A stretch of DNA of 44,018 nt. Source: Escherichia phage vB_EcoP_B. A program made the translations under genes and the position numbers. The notes under the pieces are model-generated. The model searched no databases. It was not told the origin of the DNA and saw only the letters and a list, made by a program, of their open reading frames with translations. The stretch lies in sequence record NC_047806.1; one strand, 5' to 3'. Positions 3,770 through 30,184 of this stretch are shown here, in pieces (position 1 is the first letter of the stretch; the number at the start of each line of letters is the position of its first letter).

Positions 3770-3790
3770 GTTCTATAGTGTCAACTAAAT
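3770..3790 (-). promoter_or_regulatory. phage RNAP promoter (SP6-type)
   Basis: minus-strand ATTTAGTTGACACTATAGAAC; upstream of 3246..3716. Confidence 0.65.
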
Positions 3791-16223: not shown

Positions 16224-16244
16224 ATCCTATAGTGTCCGGTAAAT
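16224..16244 (-). promoter_or_regulatory. phage RNAP promoter (first after RNAP gene)
   Basis: ATTTACCGGACACTATAGGAT. Confidence 0.6.
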
Positions 16245-16336: not shown

Positions 16337-18964
16337 TTATGCGAAACAATAGTCTGAAACTAAGATTTCGTTAAGGTCAAACTCCCCTTGCTCTGGTACT
16401 TGGATTCCGGTGTCTACTAACCAACGCTCTTCGTGCACATCTAGCAGGTTTTGCAGGGCATTATGGTTTTGATACATCTTAACCATTTCTTCCCTTAAGC
16501 TATCCCGCAGGTCTGCGGTACGTCCTGCATGAGTACCGAAAGAATCATGGATGACTGCAATGGATGTAATACCTTTATCCACTAGGTCACATACAGTCAG
16601 AATCAGGTGGCTAGCATCGTGACCATGGACGAAGTTAGGAGCAGCCGCACCCATCATTGCCGTTTCATCAACTACATCTGTTTCAATCTGGAGACTCATC
16701 TTGATTTCACCCATCAAGCAAGTGGATACGCGGAGCATATCTGTAGCCATTATCTTTTGTTGCAAGATGAAGCCAGTTGGTAAGGGATATTCTAAGCCTT
16801 CGTTTCTTTTAGCTGCGAAACGTGCAAGCTGACGAATCATTTTCATTGCCACTATAGGAGCTTTAACCACTTCCGAGATAGAAGGCCAGATTAAAGCTGT
16901 CATATAGTTATAAGCTGCGCTAGGTGTCAGGCTGTCTTTACGGTCATTATCAAAAGGGTGTACAGGATTGGCGGTACGCCCTTCCGCAATAGCCCGTTGG
17001 GCCTCTTTTTCTTCTAAATCAACGATATAATCAATCACTGACTCACGGCAGGTTAGACGTGTGCTGCCATAAGGTAGTGTCATTACGGGCTTTTTGGTCA
17101 GGCCGCGAGTGATTCCTATCATATCCCACGCACTAGCCATACTACGCAGTTCCGCACCTGTTAAAGTCACGCTGCCAGAAGTGAAGGTTTCCGCATCCTC
17201 TGCATTCATGTATGCATAATTCTTCTGAATTACTACCTGCGCAACGGCACCATAAATATCTTGAGGAGAGTCAGAGGGCTTAAGGTTTACTGCTTTCGCA
17301 CCTACTGCATCGCGTAGCATAGCACTGTAGTGCTGGATACCAGAACAACTACCATCTTGATGGACTGGGAGGTGCGTCATGAATTGGTCTTGCGTGCCTT
17401 CATCCAGTGCATCCAGATAACGCGCATATTCAAAGCACCATGCAAGGAAGCCGTAAGGGGAGTCGGCATTTACCCATTGAGTGAAGGTCAGCGGATCCGC
17501 TGCAATGTCGCGGCACATGTCTTGAAATTCACCATCCAGCACGTTAGCGGTGCGCACGTCAAAAGTTTTCTTATCCCAACCCCAGTTATTAGCCCCGTTC
17601 ACCAAAAACCACTTAAGCGCCTCAGCGCTATCAAGACGCTGCCCTTCGGTAAAACGGAGCAATGCCTTGCCTAAGTCGTTTGATTGCGGAGAGAGCGTGC
17701 TAGATTGCGCGTAGACGCGGCTGCGGCTGTCCAGAGCATACACGAAGTATATTGCGTCAAATTGGCTGTATTTACGGGCCTGCCCTACCATGCGGACGGT
17801 CGCCGCCGATTTGCTGCCGCGCTTAGTCTCAGCGGTATACAGCTTGGTGCATTCACCTTTCCAGTTGATGAAGGCTTGCCATTGTTCCGGTGTTAACATT
17901 TCTTTCAGTTCACGTCCTCGCAGGTGCTGGAACTCTAACGGCACCGGATTAGCTGGCTTGTTCTCACGGTCGATGAGTGGTTTAAAGGAAGGTACACCAT
18001 AGCCGAGGTCTAGACGTATAACGTCCTCCACAACCTGTAAAACCTCTTTATTAACCTGCCACTTAGTTGCCTGCAAAGCGTTAACAGCCTTATAAACGGC
18101 TGGCATTTGCTTTTTGGTCAGCTTGCGGACGTGCTCACGATTGCCTTTTACCAGACGAATACGGCTTGCTACTTTCTCAGTATGAAACCCACCGTTAAAA
18201 GGTGATACCCAAGGGCGGGGAGGTATAACGCAAGGTGCATAGGCAGGGCTGAGCTGCGCTACATGTTCCTTAAATGCAGTTATCCACTCTCCAACATGTT
18301 CACTGGTCTGTAAATAGTAAACACCATGCTTTCCGCCGTTAGTGCGCAAGGTACGAAGGAAGACAGGTTGACCATTGAAGAATACACTATTCTCCAATAT
18401 TTCGAGCAAGGTCATACCGATTTGCAGCAAGGTGTCTTTAGGCCATGCCTCCCAACGGGAGAAATCCGCGTCACGGTCAGCAACAGATTTCTCAGCTACT
18501 ACCGCTACGTTGTGCGCATGACGATAAGATTTAGTCTTGCTAGCCTTAAGCGACTTCTTCACTTTCTCAAAGTACTTAGCTGCGTGACCTTCCAGCTTGC
18601 TAAAACGTACTTGGTCTTCGATGCGGTCCGCTACATTCATAGCGATGGCTTGTAAGGTAACGTCTGTATTCAGCATGTCCATAACGATTTTCATGGTGAT
18701 ATATGCTGCTACTTCGTTTTCTACGCAGTTAATGAAAGCTAATGCACGCGGTGCGCGGCCTCTTTTACCTTCGTACTCTTCCTTATAAGCCTGAATACCT
18801 TCCGCCATAGGTGCGATTAGTTCGGACAATAAGCGGCGATTCCATGCCGTGTCTGATTCATTACCGGATGCAATCTGGCGTTGTTGGTCCGCTTCAAAGC
18901 GACGGATACCGCCGTTAAACATTTCTTCTTCAAGTTGAAGTTGAATAGCGTGTAGGTCTTGCAT
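16337..18964 (-). CDS. single-subunit DNA-directed RNA polymerase (T7/SP6-like), 875 aa
   Basis: ORF track; [18 protein letters not shown] and C-terminal ...DYCFA match T7 RNAP catalytic and foot motifs; length close to SP6-group RNAP; AGGAG SD. Confidence 0.9.
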
Positions 18965-21699: not shown

Positions 21700-21758
21700 A
21701 GTTAACACCTCATTCAATAAGTAATTAACCACGGCATACATAGGTTACACTAAGCAAA

Positions 21759-21808
21759 TTGTTAAAGAGCAAGGCAACATAAGTCACCTACCGTTTGGCT
21801 ATGTTGCC
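21759..21808 (-). promoter_or_regulatory. early-mRNA processing-site candidate (hairpin + GCTCTTTAACAAT)
   Basis: inverted repeat GGCAACAT/ATGTTGCC adjacent to the 13-mer. Confidence 0.4.
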
Positions 21809-21821
21809 TCCCGATGGCTGT

Positions 21822-21850
21822 AATGTACTACTAGCTTTTGCCTGTGTCAA
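21822..21850 (-). promoter_or_regulatory. candidate host sigma70 early promoter
   Basis: minus strand TTGACA - 17 nt - TACATT, upstream of first early gene. Confidence 0.5.
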
Positions 21851-21915
21851 CACTAAGTTTCACTAAGATAGACTATTTATGTGATACATGTCACAACTAC
21901 TAAGACAAACCTAGG

Positions 21916-22085
21916 TTGTCTAACGTGTGAGACTAAGGAAAAAAAAAAAAAAAAAAAAGCAATAGATACAGAGCTAGGATAGGCTAGATTGGCTAGGTAT
22001 TCCAAACGTGAAGGGGAGAAAAAGGAAAAAAAAAAAAAAAAAAAAGCAATAGATACAGAGCTAGGATAGGCTAGATTGGCTAGGT
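21916..22085. repeat. tandem direct repeat (two about 87-bp units) each containing an A20 tract; probable genome-terminus / terminal-repeat junction
   Basis: 62-bp exact repeat GG-A20-GCAATAGATACAGAGCTAGGATAGGCTAGATTGGCTAGGT at 21937-21998 and 22024-22085; lies between last late gene and first early gene. Confidence 0.7.
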
Positions 22086-22185
22086 TTCTGGTGTTCCTCC
22101 TACTGCATCTTATCACTATTACCTACTCTCAGCGGTCTACCGACCGCGACCTAATTGCATCTTATAGCTTTAGCTATGCAATCAC

Positions 22186-22320
22186 TAAGGTCTGGCACTA
22201 AGACTAACTAAGGTACACTACTAAGTTGATACTAAGCTAAGCACTAAGGCTTTAACTAAGGCAACCCACTAAGGCTAACCTAAGCCATCCATCAAGGAAT
22301 AACCTAAGGTACACGTGAGC
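22186..22320. repeat. dense array of CTAAG-containing short repeats (11 copies in 135 bp)
   Basis: cactaagg, cactaaga, aactaagg, ... ; further copies scattered 21845-23060. Confidence 0.7.
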
Positions 22321-22847
22321 GAGTGAACGGAGCGCAAGCGGAGTGAGGAGCAGTGAGTGAAGCGTAGCGAAACGAACAGATAGCCCACACCCTCATGCCC
22401 TGTCAAACGCTCAGGAATGGCCCTAAAACGGCCTGTGTAAGCCCTAAGCGGTTGCACTAAGGCAATCACCTTGTCCAATACTAAGGCGCGCCCTAGCGCT
22501 TCCTAGGTGTTCTCCTTGTGCAGCCACTAAGAGCAGACCTCGGCAAGCTCTAGGCCACCCGTCGAGCTTCCTGCGGCAGCAGGTTGAAGACGGACCAGCC
22601 CAGCCCAATTCCCAAGCCAACCGCAGCGCGGCCCCATATGGGGGAAATCCGGCGAGGGCGAGGGCGAGAGAGCTGACACACGCCTATATCAAAATTTTGA
22701 CTTTGGTTACTTTGTGACCACCTTTGGTCTGCCCTTTTGGTTACACTAAGATTATTCCTGCTAAGTACAGGTACACCAGCAGTGGGCCATAGATACATGC
22801 TGTGCATAAGAGGGCTAACAGTAGGTCTTTCATGTTACCTCATTTGA

Positions 22848-23003
22848 TTACACTAAGTCGAATCCATTGGGTTGCTTCAGGTAAGCCTGTACAGTTCCAC
22901 CAAGAACCTTCTGGCTAGCCAGTGCAGACTCTTCAGTGTCATGTATCTTCCTGAGTACCTTACGTTTGAATGGGCCGACTCCATAAGTATGAATCCAAAT
23001 CAT
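22848..23003 (-). CDS. small ORF (51 aa) downstream of tailspike; tentative
   Basis: ATG 23001-23003 with strong SD AAAGGAGG; stop lies in a TTACACTAAG repeat. Confidence 0.3.
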   Translation of the reverse strand: MIWIHTYGVGPFKRKVLRKIHDTEESALASQKVLGGTVQAYLKQPNGFDLV

Positions 23004-23196
23004 CAAACCTCCTTTGGGTTGCACTAAGGGCCAACCTAAGCCAGCCCTTGTGCAGACTAAGTGTTACTGCTTCGCAGACGATGCAGAGGCCTTACTCAAT
23101 ACTCTACGTTGAACATCCTTGGCAATGGCATATGCCTGCTTAGGGTCACGTCCTGATTGAATAAGCTCTTCTGTGTTCTGGAGTACAGCAGCTTGC

Positions 23197-25632
23197 TTAA
23201 CTGGTTTTATTAGTGGCATACATCTCCTCTAACTTGTCTAAACGATAACGAGTATAAGCAGCCTCCAAGATTAAGATTTCACTATATCTAACACCAAACT
23301 GACCTTCTTCGAAGGAGACAATGCCGAAGTCGATTGCATCTAACCCTTCGGATGCAAAAGCAGCTACAATGTCTTGTGCCAATACACCAAAGTGAGTGTG
23401 ATGCACACCACTAGACATCTCTCCAATCAACTTGTACTGCTTGAAGGCAACCTTGCCCCATGCCTTTAGTACACCCTCATCAATACCTTGTGATCCATAC
23501 TTATGAGTGGCATCAGACGTAATAATAGGGTCACTTGTAAGATGGATAGTAGTGAATCTATTACGAGGGCCGCCAGCAGGATACACGTTATCATTGTATG
23601 GCATGATAGCCCCGCTTTGGAACAAGTGCTCATTGGCATTATATACTGCGCGTCTAGAAGTACTAGAACCTGCTCCATGTAAGGTAATTTGCGCACCGGT
23701 ATCTGCTGCTGTACCCTCTCCACCAGAGATGATGACACGTTGGGCAGTTGGGTTATCCGTTGGTATAGTCTTACCAATGAACCCATATTCACCTTCCATC
23801 AGCATCTCTGAGCGAATATTAGCACTTGTACTTGCCTTCAGGGTAAGGTGTTCGACAGTCATATCTGCGGCAACTACCTCTCCTGATAAGTGAAGTGGAG
23901 CAGGAATAGTACGAATACCATCAGTACCCATGAAGGTAGGTATAGCCTGACCCGGAGTTGCACCATATGTAAACTTACGAGATACACGATTGTCATTTGC
24001 AATCTGCATCTTATAGCAGTATATATCAGTGGGGTGTCCATGACCTTTAAATGGGTCTTTATCTTTGTTGTCACCATAAGTCATTGGGTTGAAATGGTTT
24101 TCTCCACCAAAGATATAGTAAATGTAGCTGTCTTTAACTACTACCGAACCTACACCTACACTAGAGTTCACAATGTCACCCTGATAGATTTGGTCTGTGA
24201 TGTTAACCCATTCAATGTCATCTGCATTCCACTTGTTTACATTCAATCGTGCATAGAAGGTACGAGGATAAGATGCCTTGTAACGATCATCGGGTGCACC
24301 TGCTTCCCATTCATTTTCTGCACGTTCTGAACCAAACATAATAAGGTCATCTCCTACTTTAGCAAAAGGTAAGGTAGTATGATGAACATTATGTGGAAAT
24401 CTTAGTGACTCCCAAGTTTGACCTATATCTCTACTACGATGCAGAGAGCTTCCTAGTCGATCGCCACGAGTACCACGAGTGATAAGGTACAATACACCGT
24501 CATAGTACTTGATGCATGGCTCTGCCGCATCTGGTTCATACTCAGATGGTATCTGACGACGAACATAATTAGATGGGCTATTGAAAGCATCAGGGAAGTA
24601 GAAAAGCCCAACTTCTCGTGGAGCTACATCACCTTGATGATAGCCCATAACAAAGCCATTGTTATCAATAGTAGCAAAGCTATGCACCTCTGTGACACGA
24701 GTGATTAGACCAAGATCTGTCTTACGCCAAGGAGATTTATGGAAAGAAGTACCCATGTGCCAACTCTTTCCAGCGTTATTCAAATCTGAAGTCTGCTGGT
24801 TAGGTGTAAGAACCGTGAAGTTGTCCTTATCTATTACTGTTGCAACCTTCATATCACCAGATACACCTGTTACCGCAGAGTTAGAGAAGTTAACAAAATC
24901 ACCAACGAAGAGTCCGTGATCAGGTACATGGATTGTTGCATATCTCTGATTTGCAGCCTTAGTGATACCACCAGTAAGATGCAGACTACGAGACATAGGG
25001 CGATCCCACAATGCACAATTGGTTAGTGCGTTCTTGGCTAAAGTACGTGTTTCAATCATGGCAAACAGACGGTTGCGACATACACCCATACTCATACAAT
25101 GATAGTTCACTGTAGGGTAATCTGGATGCAGATCAGTTAACCACTCTGGAGTAGACCATGTTTGACCATCGTCACCAGACTTAACCCATGATACATGCAG
25201 ACGACTAACACCATGACGGTCGCTACCCATGTAAGGTGCATATATCACGTTCTCATATACAAACGCTTTGTCTTGAGGCCAAGCATTGTAATAAGGGTTA
25301 TCCGTGATTTTATAGAGTTCACCATTGATAAAACCTTTACTCACATAGTAAAGAGGTTGACCTGCTAAACGTTCCCATACGAAGCGGGTGTTATAGAATC
25401 GCTCCATATCAGGTAAAGATGATACTTTGTAAGTAGCACCAGCACCGTCAATTCTCTTACCTGAAGCCATCGCTGCATTTACTGCATCTTGGTCGTTTGT
25501 CTTACCATCACCTTTGGCTCCAAAATCTTTAAGCGATACAACCTCGGTGAGCTTGTCATCCAAGTTACGCCAGATTGCACCTGCTATTTTACTCTTGAAT
25601 TTAACTAATGAAGAACCTAGTCTTTGAATCAT
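23197..25632 (-). CDS. tailspike with endosialidase (endo-N-acetylneuraminidase) catalytic domain, 811 aa
   Basis: ORF track; two sialidase Asp-boxes SGDDGQTW and SRDIGQTW; C-terminal chaperone-like segment; AAAGGAGG SD; last structural gene before genome end as in K1E/K1-5-type phages (from memory). Confidence 0.8.
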   Translation of the reverse strand: MIQRLGSSLVKFKSKIAGAIWRNLDDKLTEVVSLKDFGAKGDGKTNDQDAVNAAMASGKRIDGAGATYKVSSLPDMERFYNTRFVWERLAGQPLYYVSKGFINGELYKITDNPYYNAWPQDKAFVYENVIYAPYMGSDRHGVSRLHVSWVKSGDDGQTWSTPEWLTDLHPDYPTVNYHCMSMGVCRNRLFAMIETRTLAKNALTNCALWDRPMSRSLHLTGGITKAANQRYATIHVPDHGLFVGDFVNFSNSAVTGVSGDMKVATVIDKDNFTVLTPNQQTSDLNNAGKSWHMGTSFHKSPWRKTDLGLITRVTEVHSFATIDNNGFVMGYHQGDVAPREVGLFYFPDAFNSPSNYVRRQIPSEYEPDAAEPCIKYYDGVLYLITRGTRGDRLGSSLHRSRDIGQTWESLRFPHNVHHTTLPFAKVGDDLIMFGSERAENEWEAGAPDDRYKASYPRTFYARLNVNKWNADDIEWVNITDQIYQGDIVNSSVGVGSVVVKDSYIYYIFGGENHFNPMTYGDNKDKDPFKGHGHPTDIYCYKMQIANDNRVSRKFTYGATPGQAIPTFMGTDGIRTIPAPLHLSGEVVAADMTVEHLTLKASTSANIRSEMLMEGEYGFIGKTIPTDNPTAQRVIISGGEGTAADTGAQITLHGAGSSTSRRAVYNANEHLFQSGAIMPYNDNVYPAGGPRNRFTTIHLTSDPIITSDATHKYGSQGIDEGVLKAWGKVAFKQYKLIGEMSSGVHHTHFGVLAQDIVAAFASEGLDAIDFGIVSFEEGQFGVRYSEILILEAAYTRYRLDKLEEMYATNKTS

Positions 25633-26116: not shown

Positions 26117-26137
26117 CTTCTATAGTGTCCAGTAAAT
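26117..26137 (-). promoter_or_regulatory. phage RNAP promoter (upstream of tailspike operon)
   Basis: ATTTACTGGACACTATAGAAG. Confidence 0.7.
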
Positions 26138-27788: not shown

Positions 27789-27810
27789 CCTTCTATAGTG
27801 TCCGGTAATT
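27789..27810 (-). promoter_or_regulatory. phage RNAP promoter (overlaps terminase stop)
   Basis: AATTACCGGACACTATAGAAGG. Confidence 0.65.
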
Positions 27811-29707
27811 AATAAGTCCTTGAAATCCTTGCAGAAAGTGTATTTCTGCTTGCCGATTTACTCCTGTAATTCTGACCGTATACTCTTTGCTGCATAGCCA
27901 CGGAAGTGTTGGTTACTCTTCGCTCAGTGCCATAATCTCCATAGAGCATTGCCCTACGGAGGTGAGGTGTGTTCATAGCATGGATGTAATCGCGCATCTC
28001 CTGCGCTCTGAGGCGATTAATCCGTGTAACCTCGTCATAGTCTATCTGAGAAGTTAATTGCCGTATAGCGCCATACAGAGCGTCTAAGCGGTCATCGTGT
28101 CGTAGGCTGTTCTTCTCAATCGTGATGTTCGACATTTGATTGAAAAGGCTGTATGACATGCGTAGTTCAAGCGGATAGTGCTGTACCGACTCAAAATCAG
28201 ACTTGACCATCTCTGCGTTGAAGATGAGCCTGTGGGCCGCCATTAGTGGCTCTAGTGTTTCAATGATACGCAACTCTTTCTGTCCGGTGGCGTAATCTTC
28301 CTCCAGAGTCACAGGCCACTCTCGTTCAAAGTATGGCTTTATAACGGCCTCAAACGCGCCATGACCAAAGTTCTTTTCAATGAATACCTCTTTAACACCT
28401 GCCTGCTTTGCGGCCTGCACAATGCGATTCAGGGACGATTCGCGGTATCCTCCCGGAACACCAAAGCACTGATACACATAAATGAATGTGCCGTGCAGGA
28501 AGACGATAGACACACCCGTTTCATCCCCGTTCTTACCGCCACCTGCGGGGTCAATATACATAATCTTTCGGGTAACAGCACCCCACTCATAAGGTCGGGC
28601 CACAGGGCGATACATAAAGTCTGTAGGCTTATTGCCATACTTCGGTGCATCGCCAATGATGTTAATAGAGTCGTTGCTCCATGTAGGCATCACAGGGACT
28701 TCCTCTGTACCGAATGAAGTGAAGATGAGGTTGTTCAGGCGTAGTGGATAGCGGTCAGCATCCATCATGCGAGTGTTAAGCATAAACTGAAGCTGGAACT
28801 TAGCCGCACCCTGCGAGATTTCCTTCTCGATCAGCACATCATCATCATACATTTCAGGTGCACAAGGTGCACCACTATTGCCATCCAAGCCATACCCTGA
28901 GCGAAGTGCTGGGTTGTCCTTCATATCCTGCACAATCATAGGTGCAAGGAAGTCACCATAGCATTGCTCCTGCTCCACTGAGGGATAACGTGCAGTCCAG
29001 ATACGAACAGAGTAACCACGAGCAGGTAGGTTATTGTAGATAGAGTTTACGTTCTGAGGAGTACCAAGGTAGATAATATCACCAAACTGGTTAATAGATT
29101 CAAACTCCTTGGTCAGTTCCTCAAGCAAGGCACGTCCTGCCGCTGTACGAGCATTCTGCATTGACTCAACGTCATCTGCTAGGATGATATCTGCACGCGC
29201 ACCCTGCATACCTGCTTCGATTGAGTAACAAGACACAGAAGGCGACTTGTCACTGCCACGTAGGGTGTAATGAATCTCAAATGCCTTAACTGAGGCACGG
29301 TCCCCTGCGTAGATGTCCGGTAGCATAAACTCAAGAAAGTCTAGGCCACGGAAGATTTTAACTACCCAACCTGCGATTTCCTCTGCTCGCTTGGCGTTTT
29401 GGGATACTACCATGATACGCTTATGGGGTTCATGGATGATACGGAAAACAGTATAGATTGCTGATAGTGTAGTTTTAGCGATACCACGGGGCGCTTCGAT
29501 GAGGCGATATTTATGTCCATAGAATAGAAACTTTAAAATATCGGCCTGCATACGAATCAGATGAGGGTTGCCTGCAATCAAGTTATGGATAACTGTATCT
29601 GCAAAGAGAAGCAAACCTTCCGCCGTATACTGAAAAGTCTGCTGTAACTCCTGTAGCATCTCCCATCTGGCAAGAGCCTCCGCTTGTGATTCTCTTGCCT
29701 TAGCCAT
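27809..29707 (-). CDS. terminase large subunit (gp19-like), about 632 aa
   Basis: ORF track 27809..29710 (TTG) trimmed to ATG with CTAAGGAGG SD; Walker A-like PRGIAKTT; size and position. Confidence 0.8.
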   Translation of the reverse strand: MAKARESQAEALARWEMLQELQQTFQYTAEGLLLFADTVIHNLIAGNPHLIRMQADILKFLFYGHKYRLIEAPRGIAKTTLSAIYTVFRIIHEPHKRIMVVSQNAKRAEEIAGWVVKIFRGLDFLEFMLPDIYAGDRASVKAFEIHYTLRGSDKSPSVSCYSIEAGMQGARADIILADDVESMQNARTAAGRALLEELTKEFESINQFGDIIYLGTPQNVNSIYNNLPARGYSVRIWTARYPSVEQEQCYGDFLAPMIVQDMKDNPALRSGYGLDGNSGAPCAPEMYDDDVLIEKEISQGAAKFQLQFMLNTRMMDADRYPLRLNNLIFTSFGTEEVPVMPTWSNDSINIIGDAPKYGNKPTDFMYRPVARPYEWGAVTRKIMYIDPAGGGKNGDETGVSIVFLHGTFIYVYQCFGVPGGYRESSLNRIVQAAKQAGVKEVFIEKNFGHGAFEAVIKPYFEREWPVTLEEDYATGQKELRIIETLEPLMAAHRLIFNAEMVKSDFESVQHYPLELRMSYSLFNQMSNITIEKNSLRHDDRLDALYGAIRQLTSQIDYDEVTRINRLRAQEMRDYIHAMNTPHLRRAMLYGDYGTERRVTNTSVAMQQRVYGQNYRSKSASRNTLSARISRTY

Positions 29708-30006
29708 CAATCCTCCTTAGTGAATTGGATGATCTTGCCACTTGATGCCTCTCGGATAGCCTTGAGGCGCTTAGATAGCTTGGACTCCTCCTGCTGTGCA
29801 GCGGGTGTAGCGGTAATACCATTATCAAGAACCCACTTACACATAGCTCCAATGTCTTTACCAGAGACTAAATGCAGTGCTGCATCTGGGTCTTCTTCTA
29901 TAGTGTCCAGTATTGCCTGTGCTTTCTTATTAAAGATTTTGGTAATAGCACCATGTAGAATGCCAACCTCGTCTTCCGTAGCTGCATGTTTATTGTGTAC
30001 GCTCAT
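29707..30006 (-). CDS. terminase small subunit (gp18-like), about 99 aa
   Basis: ORF track 29707..30051 trimmed to ATG 30004-30006 with GGAGGAGG SD; position between holin and large terminase. Confidence 0.55.
   Translation of the reverse strand: MSVHNKHAATEDEVGILHGAITKIFNKKAQAILDTIEEDPDAALHLVSGKDIGAMCKWVLDNGITATPAAQQEESKLSKRLKAIREASSGKIIQFTKED
29895..29915 (-). promoter_or_regulatory. phage RNAP promoter-like sequence inside small terminase gene
   Basis: CAATACTGGACACTATAGAAG (5' end diverged). Confidence 0.45.
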
Positions 30007-30184
30007 GGCTCCTCCTCCATAGTTTAATCTTGGTATAAAACCAGTCTCCAATTTGCAACACGGTATAAATGAATGTTGCTATTAACACCCAATTATCCCA
30101 ACTGATACCGAGGAAGTACCCACCTGATACTAATGCAGGTGGCGCCAGCTTCACACCACTATCTACCAGTTCGGAGTTAATCAT
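29990..30184 (-). CDS. holin (T7 gp17.5-like class II), 64 aa
   Basis: ORF track; strong SD AAGGAGGTG; hydrophobic core IATFIYTVLQIG parallels T7 holin ...AIAYTVVQIG... (from memory). Confidence 0.6.
   Translation of the reverse strand: MINSELVDSGVKLAPPALVSGGYFLGISWDNWVLIATFIYTVLQIGDWFYTKIKLWRRSHERTQ

Follow-up and report, generated by a model that had tools for sequence, protein, structure and literature searches.

Purine-rich, palindromic and hexameric elements probably mark the two edges of the terminal repeat in a K1E-type coliphage genome

Our analysis indicates that a purine-rich block, a 12-bp palindrome and a hexamer triplet in the genome of Escherichia phage vB_EcoP_B (NC_047806.1) very probably mark both edges of the terminal repeat of a K1E/SP6-type podophage, i.e., a packaging and cleavage junction of the T7 type. 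The arrangement itself is already known, as both edges are homologous to the deposited termini of K1E, K1-5, and SP6 and are built like the T7/T3 junction. The hexamers and the palindrome lie inside the direct terminal repeat (DTR) and make up the extreme left end of the mature DNA; they recur at its right end. Hereafter, "the window" denotes the whole stretch of DNA that was analyzed (44,018 nucleotides). The first-pass annotation had assigned these elements to a right-end region, which was imprecise: they are located in or beside a collapsed terminal repeat, i.e., at the concatemer junction of a circularly permuted assembly.

The closest relatives of the window are the K1E-group coliphages (Vectrevirus, Molineuxvirinae), with 85-92% identity over the region. 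The window is a complete K1E-like genome that was assembled as a circle, reverse-complemented, and opened within the portal gene: its last 250 and first 250 bases adjoin within the portal gene of the relatives, and its long ORFs are all on the minus strand. Such unit-genome circles, opened at an arbitrary base, are common for terminal-repeat phages (PMC5557969; PMC10438801). The DTR markers occur only once in the window, which corresponds to one collapsed copy of the repeat. Since the assembler circularized the genome, the repeat is present as a single copy and the stretch is equivalent to a concatemer junction. A full-length genome with the second repeat copy, which the deposited sequence lacks, would be ~44,307 bp long, and for annotators the genome start belongs on the minus strand at 22669. 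The coordinates of all relevant features are collected in Table 1.

Table 1. Features of the junction and of the genes and promoter considered with it (window coordinates; genome nt are counted from the left end of the DTR)
Feature	Coordinates	Strand	Evidence or remark
CTTAG(T/G) array, left-unique side, 11 CTTAG, spacing ~5-24 nt (mostly 10-13)	22185..22309	-	analogous to the T7 SRL CCTAAAG array
Purine block, complement of the first 60 unique nt after the left DTR; top strand pyrimidine-rich and A-poor	22321..22380	-	starts TCTGTT
ATCTGTT, candidate class II (concatemer-junction type) pause/termination signal; its A is the last DTR base	22375..22381	-	exact in 16/17 contiguous junctions
DTR, one collapsed copy, 289 bp	22381..22669	-	TCTCGCC...GTGGGCTA on the minus strand; alignment to K1E, K1-5, and SP6
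C-run/ATAT/G-run box CCCCCATATGGGG, genome nt 26-38, holding the 12-bp palindrome	22632..22644	-	27 junctions
(CTCGCC)3, i.e., (GGCGAG)3 of the plus strand, genome nt 2-19 (T, then CTCGCC x3), just inside the left-end cut	22651..22668	-	TRF
Right-unique block upstream of the left-end cut, CACAAAGTAACCAAAGTCAAAATTTTGATATAGGCGTGTGTCAGCTC	22670..22719	-	identity 0.88-0.95 versus 16 other junctions, the top of the ~1 kb region
Scattered CTTAGT, right-unique side, SRR-like	22746..23062	-	six copies
K1 endosialidase, 811 aa	23197..25632 (ORF)	-	
Phage-type promoter nearest upstream of the DTR, TACTGGACACTATAG	26120..26134	-	transcripts would cross the tailspike gene towards the junction
Large terminase subunit, T7 gp19 type, presumed nuclease and motor	27809..29710	-	PF22530 5.5e-35; phrog_17672 3.7e-240
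Small terminase subunit, T7 gp18 family, presumed trans-acting recognizer	29707..30051	-	PF11123 5e-16; phrog_891 1.7e-25
Single-subunit phage RNA polymerase, expected to pause at ATCTGTT	16337..18964	-	PF00940 7e-89; PF14700 1e-31

The edges of the repeat were placed through the deposited relatives. The K1E record (AM084415) includes both copies of the repeat; its positions 1-419 match the window from 22669 to 22250 co-linearly with 91% identity, and its right end, GGGCTA (...GTGGGCTA), is homologous to window position 22381. In addition, several independent records without one repeat copy stop exactly before 22669 or at 22381. The physical ends of the DNA of our phage would accordingly be those predicted from homology to K1E (85-91% identity in the region), with the left cut fixed to ~2 nt, as the records of K1E, K1-5, and SP6 do not begin at the same step of a TCTCTC run. 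Assignment to the T7-type DTRs is based on this homology to the termini of relatives, on the T7-type terminase subunits, and on the short-repeat arrays that flank the repeat.

A comparison of prefix and suffix in the deposited genomes gave repeat lengths of 288 bp for K1E, 234 bp for K1-5, 174 bp for SP6, and 160 bp for T7, compared with 289 bp in the window; for SP6 and T7, these match the published lengths. Across the relatives, the length varies from 162 to 292 bp with both edges fixed, and a DTR of 179 bp has been determined experimentally in the relative UAB_Phi78 (PMC4837284). The lengths differ because the central part of the repeat is variable. The DTR is also richer in GC (60.6%) than the genome as a whole (45.0%). 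On the minus strand, the order of elements at the left edge is the right-unique block (22719 to 22670), the left-end cut, T-(CTCGCC)3, GGATTT, and CCCCCATATGGGG, followed by the variable center; at the inner edge, TTGACAGGG and GTGGGCTA precede the boundary, and TCTGTTCGTTT and a pyrimidine-rich stretch follow it, before the CTTAG array begins.

Conservation was assessed in 27 distinct junctions from at least six genera, comprising phages of E. coli, Salmonella, Klebsiella, Proteus, Lelliottia, and Pectobacterium as well as uncultured viral contigs. These came from an IMG/VR scan with a junction 20-mer (7 loci), from the RNA polymerase gene (a further 16 loci), and from 8 GenBank records. The whole repeat is contiguous in 17 of the 27, and these 17 were aligned to the window for identity. 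Identity reached 0.82-0.95 from 22719 to 22640 (i.e., -50 to +30 around the left cut), compared with 0.54-0.73 in the adjoining small gene; it fell to 0.16-0.32, with large indels, in the center of the repeat (22619 to 22520), rose to 0.73-0.79 at the inner boundary (22399 to 22360), and was 0.30-0.41 over the rest of the purine block (22359 to 22320). Conservation in related genomes, which the first-pass annotation had named as a check on its elements, is seen for the hexamers, the palindrome box, and the first ~20 nt of the purine block, but not for the remainder of that block.

The right-unique block is kept in SP6, K1-5, and K1E as well as in Klebsiella, Proteus, Lelliottia, and Pectobacterium phages. 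We also observed a second perfect 12-bp palindrome, TCAAAATTTTGA, at 22689-22700, which the first reading of the sequence had not listed. It is located 20 nt upstream of the left-end cut, within the block of 0.95 identity, and is present in SP6, K1-5, K1E, and Klebsiella, Proteus, and Lelliottia phages. As a candidate recognition element, it may be considered at least equal to the listed palindrome, CCCCATATGGGG.

At the inner boundary, the sequence ATCTGTT spans the last base of the repeat, and the sole exception among the 17 contiguous junctions is POP72, which has ATCTGTC. Its placement is equal, within 1 nt, in T7, T3, K11, SP6, K1-5, and K1E, and the K11 record annotates the site as "concatemeric junction". 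ATCTGTT is the strictly conserved core of class II signals, which need A, C, or T before it (10.64898/2026.02.12.705533; 10.1101/2021.01.11.426313), and the T7 concatemer junction is the only natural class II example (10.1101/2021.01.11.426313; 10.64898/2026.02.12.705533; PMC11617373). In the window, the coding strand reads CT-ATCTGTT from 22383 to 22375, so that the core is preceded by T, in line with this rule. Since the genome-wide frequency of the 7-mer equals chance (7 copies versus 7.5 expected, only two of them on the coding strand), it is the conserved placement of ATCTGTT that argues for a function. No U-run follows the core, as the downstream CGTTTCGC (CGTTTCG) is without a run of at least four T residues; as at the T7 concatemer junction (ACAGTCTCC), this predicts pausing rather than efficient termination (PMC11617373), judging from the sequence.

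The purine block begins at this putative pause site. It had been described as almost pure purine, which overstates its composition: 46 of its 60 nucleotides (76.7%) are purines (A21, G25, C9, T5). Nevertheless, it belongs to one of just four clusters of 60-mers with at least 75% purine, against a strand average of 46.7%. Repeated GAGTGA and GAGCGA units had also been reported; the former occurs three times (at 22321, 22341, and 22355), whereas the latter occurs once, from 22317, just outside the range of the block. In the relatives, the homologous 60 nt are 60-78% pyrimidine on the opposite strand, with conservation confined to the first ~20 nt (0.73, then 0.30-0.41).

We regard it as an even call whether the purine block past its first ~20 nt is a neutral spacer with no specific signal, whose bias is a by-product, e.g., of A being avoided on the top strand from the pause site up to the CTTAG array. 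The low identity over 22359-22320 agrees with this, as length and sequence vary there while the 60-78% pyrimidine content stays; however, a bias that persists across genera suggests some constraint. Moreover, inspection by eye found a loose YCACTCAC motif 20-55 nt past the repeat in most E. coli and Salmonella members, which could be a right-end processing element. The most likely role of the purine block past the first ~20 nt is that of a spacer with a biased composition, located downstream of the pause site.

At the left edge, the three tandem GGCGAG hexamers (GGCGAGGGCGAGGGCGAG) are present exactly as first described. They are the sole exact threefold hexamer tandem in the window, and none of 200 Markov-1 simulations produced one. 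Three CTCGSC units (CTCGCC or CTCGGC) occur in fixed register in most of the 27 junctions, with degenerate versions in Proteus PM93, Klebsiella F5M1D, and one further junction (L025). In SP6, two of the three hexamers are CTCGGC, compared with CTCGCC in the window, and the triplet was not found in the ends of T7 or T3.

The palindrome CCCCATATGGGG is likewise exact, at 22632-22643 (genome nt 27-38). Taken alone, it is within chance, as the window holds 15 perfect 12-bp palindromes versus 10.6 expected; its significance derives from position and conservation and not from palindromicity. More specifically, every one of the 27 junctions has a C-run beginning at nt 26-28. Most of them carry ATA as the loop, with ATAT restricted to the K1E lineage and TAT, GTA, and ACA found once each, and the G-run usually reads GGG and then TG (its length is 2-3 nt in most relatives; GG in F5M1D). 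K1-5 and SP6 carry CCCCATAGGG, whereas only the K1E lineage has the perfect palindrome (CATATG, with the ATAT loop). An equivalent box of a C-run and ATAG is present in T7 (CCCCCATAGGGGG, nt 26), T3 (CCCCCCCCATAGCCCC, nt 26), and K1F (CCCCATAGGCCC, nt 27), and gh-1 and phiKMV have, by eye, a related CCCCCGTAG box (CCCCCGTAGG) at an equal distance from the end.

A perfect palindrome of 12 bp raises the idea that single-stranded or supercoiled DNA folds here into a hairpin or cruciform, which would either mark the end to be cleaved or prime repeat synthesis. The equal distance of T7 CCCCCATAGGGGG from its end and the joint occurrence of C-run and G-run in most relatives would fit such a structure, but we consider it improbable. 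Across the 27 junctions, the possible stem is 2-4 bp, and the G-run is down to one or two G in T3 (CCCCCCCCATAGCCCC) and K1F (CCCCATAGGCCC); since T3 and K1F are without the full G-run, the dyad is not the conserved property. The invariant part is the sequence C-run plus ATAG, and no compensatory changes were observed. Structure prediction, which had been suggested along with the palindrome, also speaks against a fold: neither strand of the terminal 50 or 121 nt, nor the ends of T7 and SP6, folded better than dinucleotide shuffles (z of +0.2 to +0.5). The palindrome is best read as a K1E-lineage variant of a C-run plus ATAG box ~26 nt from the end, with the putative role of a duplex recognition motif rather than of a hairpin. 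A separate observation concerns Klebsiella phage vB_Kpn_K22PH164C1, in which a homopolymer of 14 G residues follows the C-run/ATA box ~30-50 nt past the left cut (CCCCATAGGGGGGGGGGGGGGC); either the G-run has truly expanded in this phage or the homopolymer is a sequencing error.

We tentatively propose, as a possibility that falls somewhat short of probable, that the ~90-bp duplex block from -50 to +38 is the complete packaging-recognition site of the Molineuxvirinae, with the CTCGSC hexamers as an array for an oligomeric small terminase and the C-run plus RTAG box ~26 nt from the cut as an ancient, family-wide cut-positioning element, possibly the sole cis element common to all Autographiviridae terminases. 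This box was found in T7, T3, K1F, gh-1, phiKMV, SP6, and K1E. That it occupies this position, ~26 nt from the left terminus, across three subfamilies of the Autographiviridae offers a testable handle on terminase recognition, and its distance provides a fast way of locating termini in unoriented assemblies.

The junction is embedded in short repeats. Besides the two flanking groups (Table 1), three further CTTAGT copies are located inside the DTR (22456-22531). Genome-wide, CTTAGT occurs 56 times versus 28.9 expected; the minus strand of 21749-23061 holds 20 of these copies (26 for CTTAG), and the density of CTAAG in 21742-23063 is 22 times that of the rest of the genome. Phage-type promoters with the core TAC(T/C)GGACACTATAG gave 12 minus-strand matches versus 1.6 expected (at 3773, 7367, 8513, 9282, 13016, 13709, 16227, 20273, 26120, 27793, 29898, and 42654), none of which lies between the tailspike gene and the terminal repeat.

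Several other elements were noted around these repeats and promoters. Outside the junction features, the best sigma-70-like early promoter (TTGACA-17-TACATT) is located on the minus strand from 21850 to 21822, ~820 nt from the left end, and K1E, SP6, and IMG/VR relatives share its sequence (plus strand, CCTGTGTCAAC). Window positions 21929-22085 hold an 87-bp tandem duplication, each copy with an A20 tract (21939-21958 and 22026-22045; T20 on the coding strand), and the copies are joined by an orphan 27-nt segment, CCTTTTTCTCCCCTTCACGTTTGGAAT, that has no match elsewhere in the window or in the phage collection. Among the best 25 of 87 matching records, all 25 have ~157 bp for the 261-bp stretch of the window, and none has the 87-bp duplication or a long homopolymer (K1E has TTT, compared with T20 in the window). 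The A20 duplication may have arisen as an artifact of the assembly or the library, or it may be a genuine hypervariable insertion located between the CTTAG array and the early promoter. Finally, a 12-bp palindrome, CTCACATGTGAG, occurs three times (16068, 16250, and 34498). By coordinates, the first two copies, 182 nt apart, flank the phage promoter at 16227-16241, and the third separates two large late ORFs; this palindrome could have a regulatory function or be associated with a terminator.

Replication-associated signals had been offered as an alternative to packaging signals for the same stretch, with the purine/pyrimidine asymmetry and the repeats as elements of an origin or a priming site. 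The strand-asymmetric composition and the dense short repeats nearby would be compatible with this, and terminal repeats are required for concatemer formation in replication (PMC3896407). That general tie via concatemer formation is the extent of the connection, and nothing in our data supports an origin, which we judge very improbable. Within 22321-22668, we found no AT-rich unwinding element, no module of a promoter plus AT-rich sequence, no promoter-like sites, and no host promoters or terminators; the DTR is GC-rich, and the conserved parts coincide with the two cut sites and not with the asymmetric block. The mapped origins of T7 are at phage promoters (phi1.1A/B, phiOL, and phiOR) and not in the repeat.

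It is extremely improbable that the motifs are coding and that the minus-strand ORFs 22550-22807 (85 aa, the positional homolog of K1E "gp48"), 22275-22478, and 22444-22620 are real genes: although the homologous stretch in relatives bears annotations for gp48 (in K1E) and several "hypothetical proteins", and an ORF running into the repeat would stay intact at the right genome end, the junction-crossing ORF ranges from 15 to 112 aa among the 27 relatives, with differing stops and mostly below 45 aa, the DTR center contains large indels, conservation peaks at the cut site and not along a reading frame, and the ORFs have no Pfam or PHROG match, whereas the neighboring small genes 22848-23024 and 23064-23219 match PHROGs. 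These ORFs are probably spurious calls across the packaging junction, and the initial description of the region as non-coding is borne out, with no ORF conserved across the junction.

By analogy with T7 and T3, the junction could operate as follows. The small and large terminase subunits would recognize, in concatemers, the ~80-bp conserved duplex block across the left boundary, i.e., the upstream block, the hexamer triplet, and the C-run/ATAG box at a fixed distance of ~26 nt, and a terminase cut there would make the left end. The phage RNA polymerase, moving rightwards through the repeat, would pause at ATCTGTT on the inner boundary, and this pause may help to recruit the terminase and to set the right-end cut after GGGCTA. 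In the T7 pausing model, T7 lysozyme is a further component. The repeat would then be duplicated by fill-in or strand-displacement synthesis, leaving a copy at both ends of the virion DNA; DTRs are described as arising by extension at staggered nicks (PMC5557969). In T7, Pac has two parts: gp18 binds PacB, and gp19 cuts PacC (PMC9860248). The proposal that the listed elements are packaging (pac) signals can be retained for the hexamers and the palindrome, which are at nt 2-38 in the most conserved non-coding block, beside the left-end cut. It does not extend to most of the purine block, which is poorly conserved, and with fixed-site cutting of the T7 type, the term "pac" would apply only in the loose PacB/PacC sense. 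The cis requirements for packaging in T7 and T3 have been mapped genetically (Chung & Hinkle; Fujisawa); in the literature we reached, no packaging genetics was found for the SP6/K1E group.

Of the known systems, the headful pac sites of P22, P1, and SPP1 resemble the junction in providing a terminase recognition sequence in concatemers, where packaging begins. However, headful phages have circularly permuted DNA with variable ends, whereas the relatives of the window have exact repeats with fixed ends (see also PMC4837284) and the terminase is of the T7 type. We rejected a headful pac site on these two grounds.

The likeness to T7 and T3 is extensive. It includes a short, exact DTR, a genome that begins with TCTC, the C-run plus ATAG box 26 nt from the left end, and ATCTGTT, preceded by T, across the inner repeat boundary, and the phage likewise encodes a gp18/gp19 terminase of the T7 type and a single-subunit RNA polymerase. 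As in T7 and T3, arrays of short repeats flank the DTR, with CCTAAAG in T7 and CTTAG(T/G) in the window. Outside the shared boxes, however, T7 and T3 have no alignable similarity to the window, and they lack the hexamer triplet. In addition, the T7 phiOR promoter is a few hundred bp upstream of its repeat, whereas the nearest consensus promoter in the window is ~3.5 kb upstream (26134).

The likeness is closest to K1E (AM084415), K1-5 (NC_008152), and SP6 (NC_004831) of the Molineuxvirinae, in which both repeat edges are homologous to the window base for base. All three share with it the left edge TCTC(TC)GSCCTCGSCCTCGCCGG..TCCCCATA(T)GGG and the right edge TTGACAG.GTGTG.GGG.GTGGGCTA, followed across the boundary by TCTGTTC. 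As in the window, the upstream block CAAAATTTTGATRTAGGCGTGTGTCAGC precedes the repeat and CTTAG arrays follow it.
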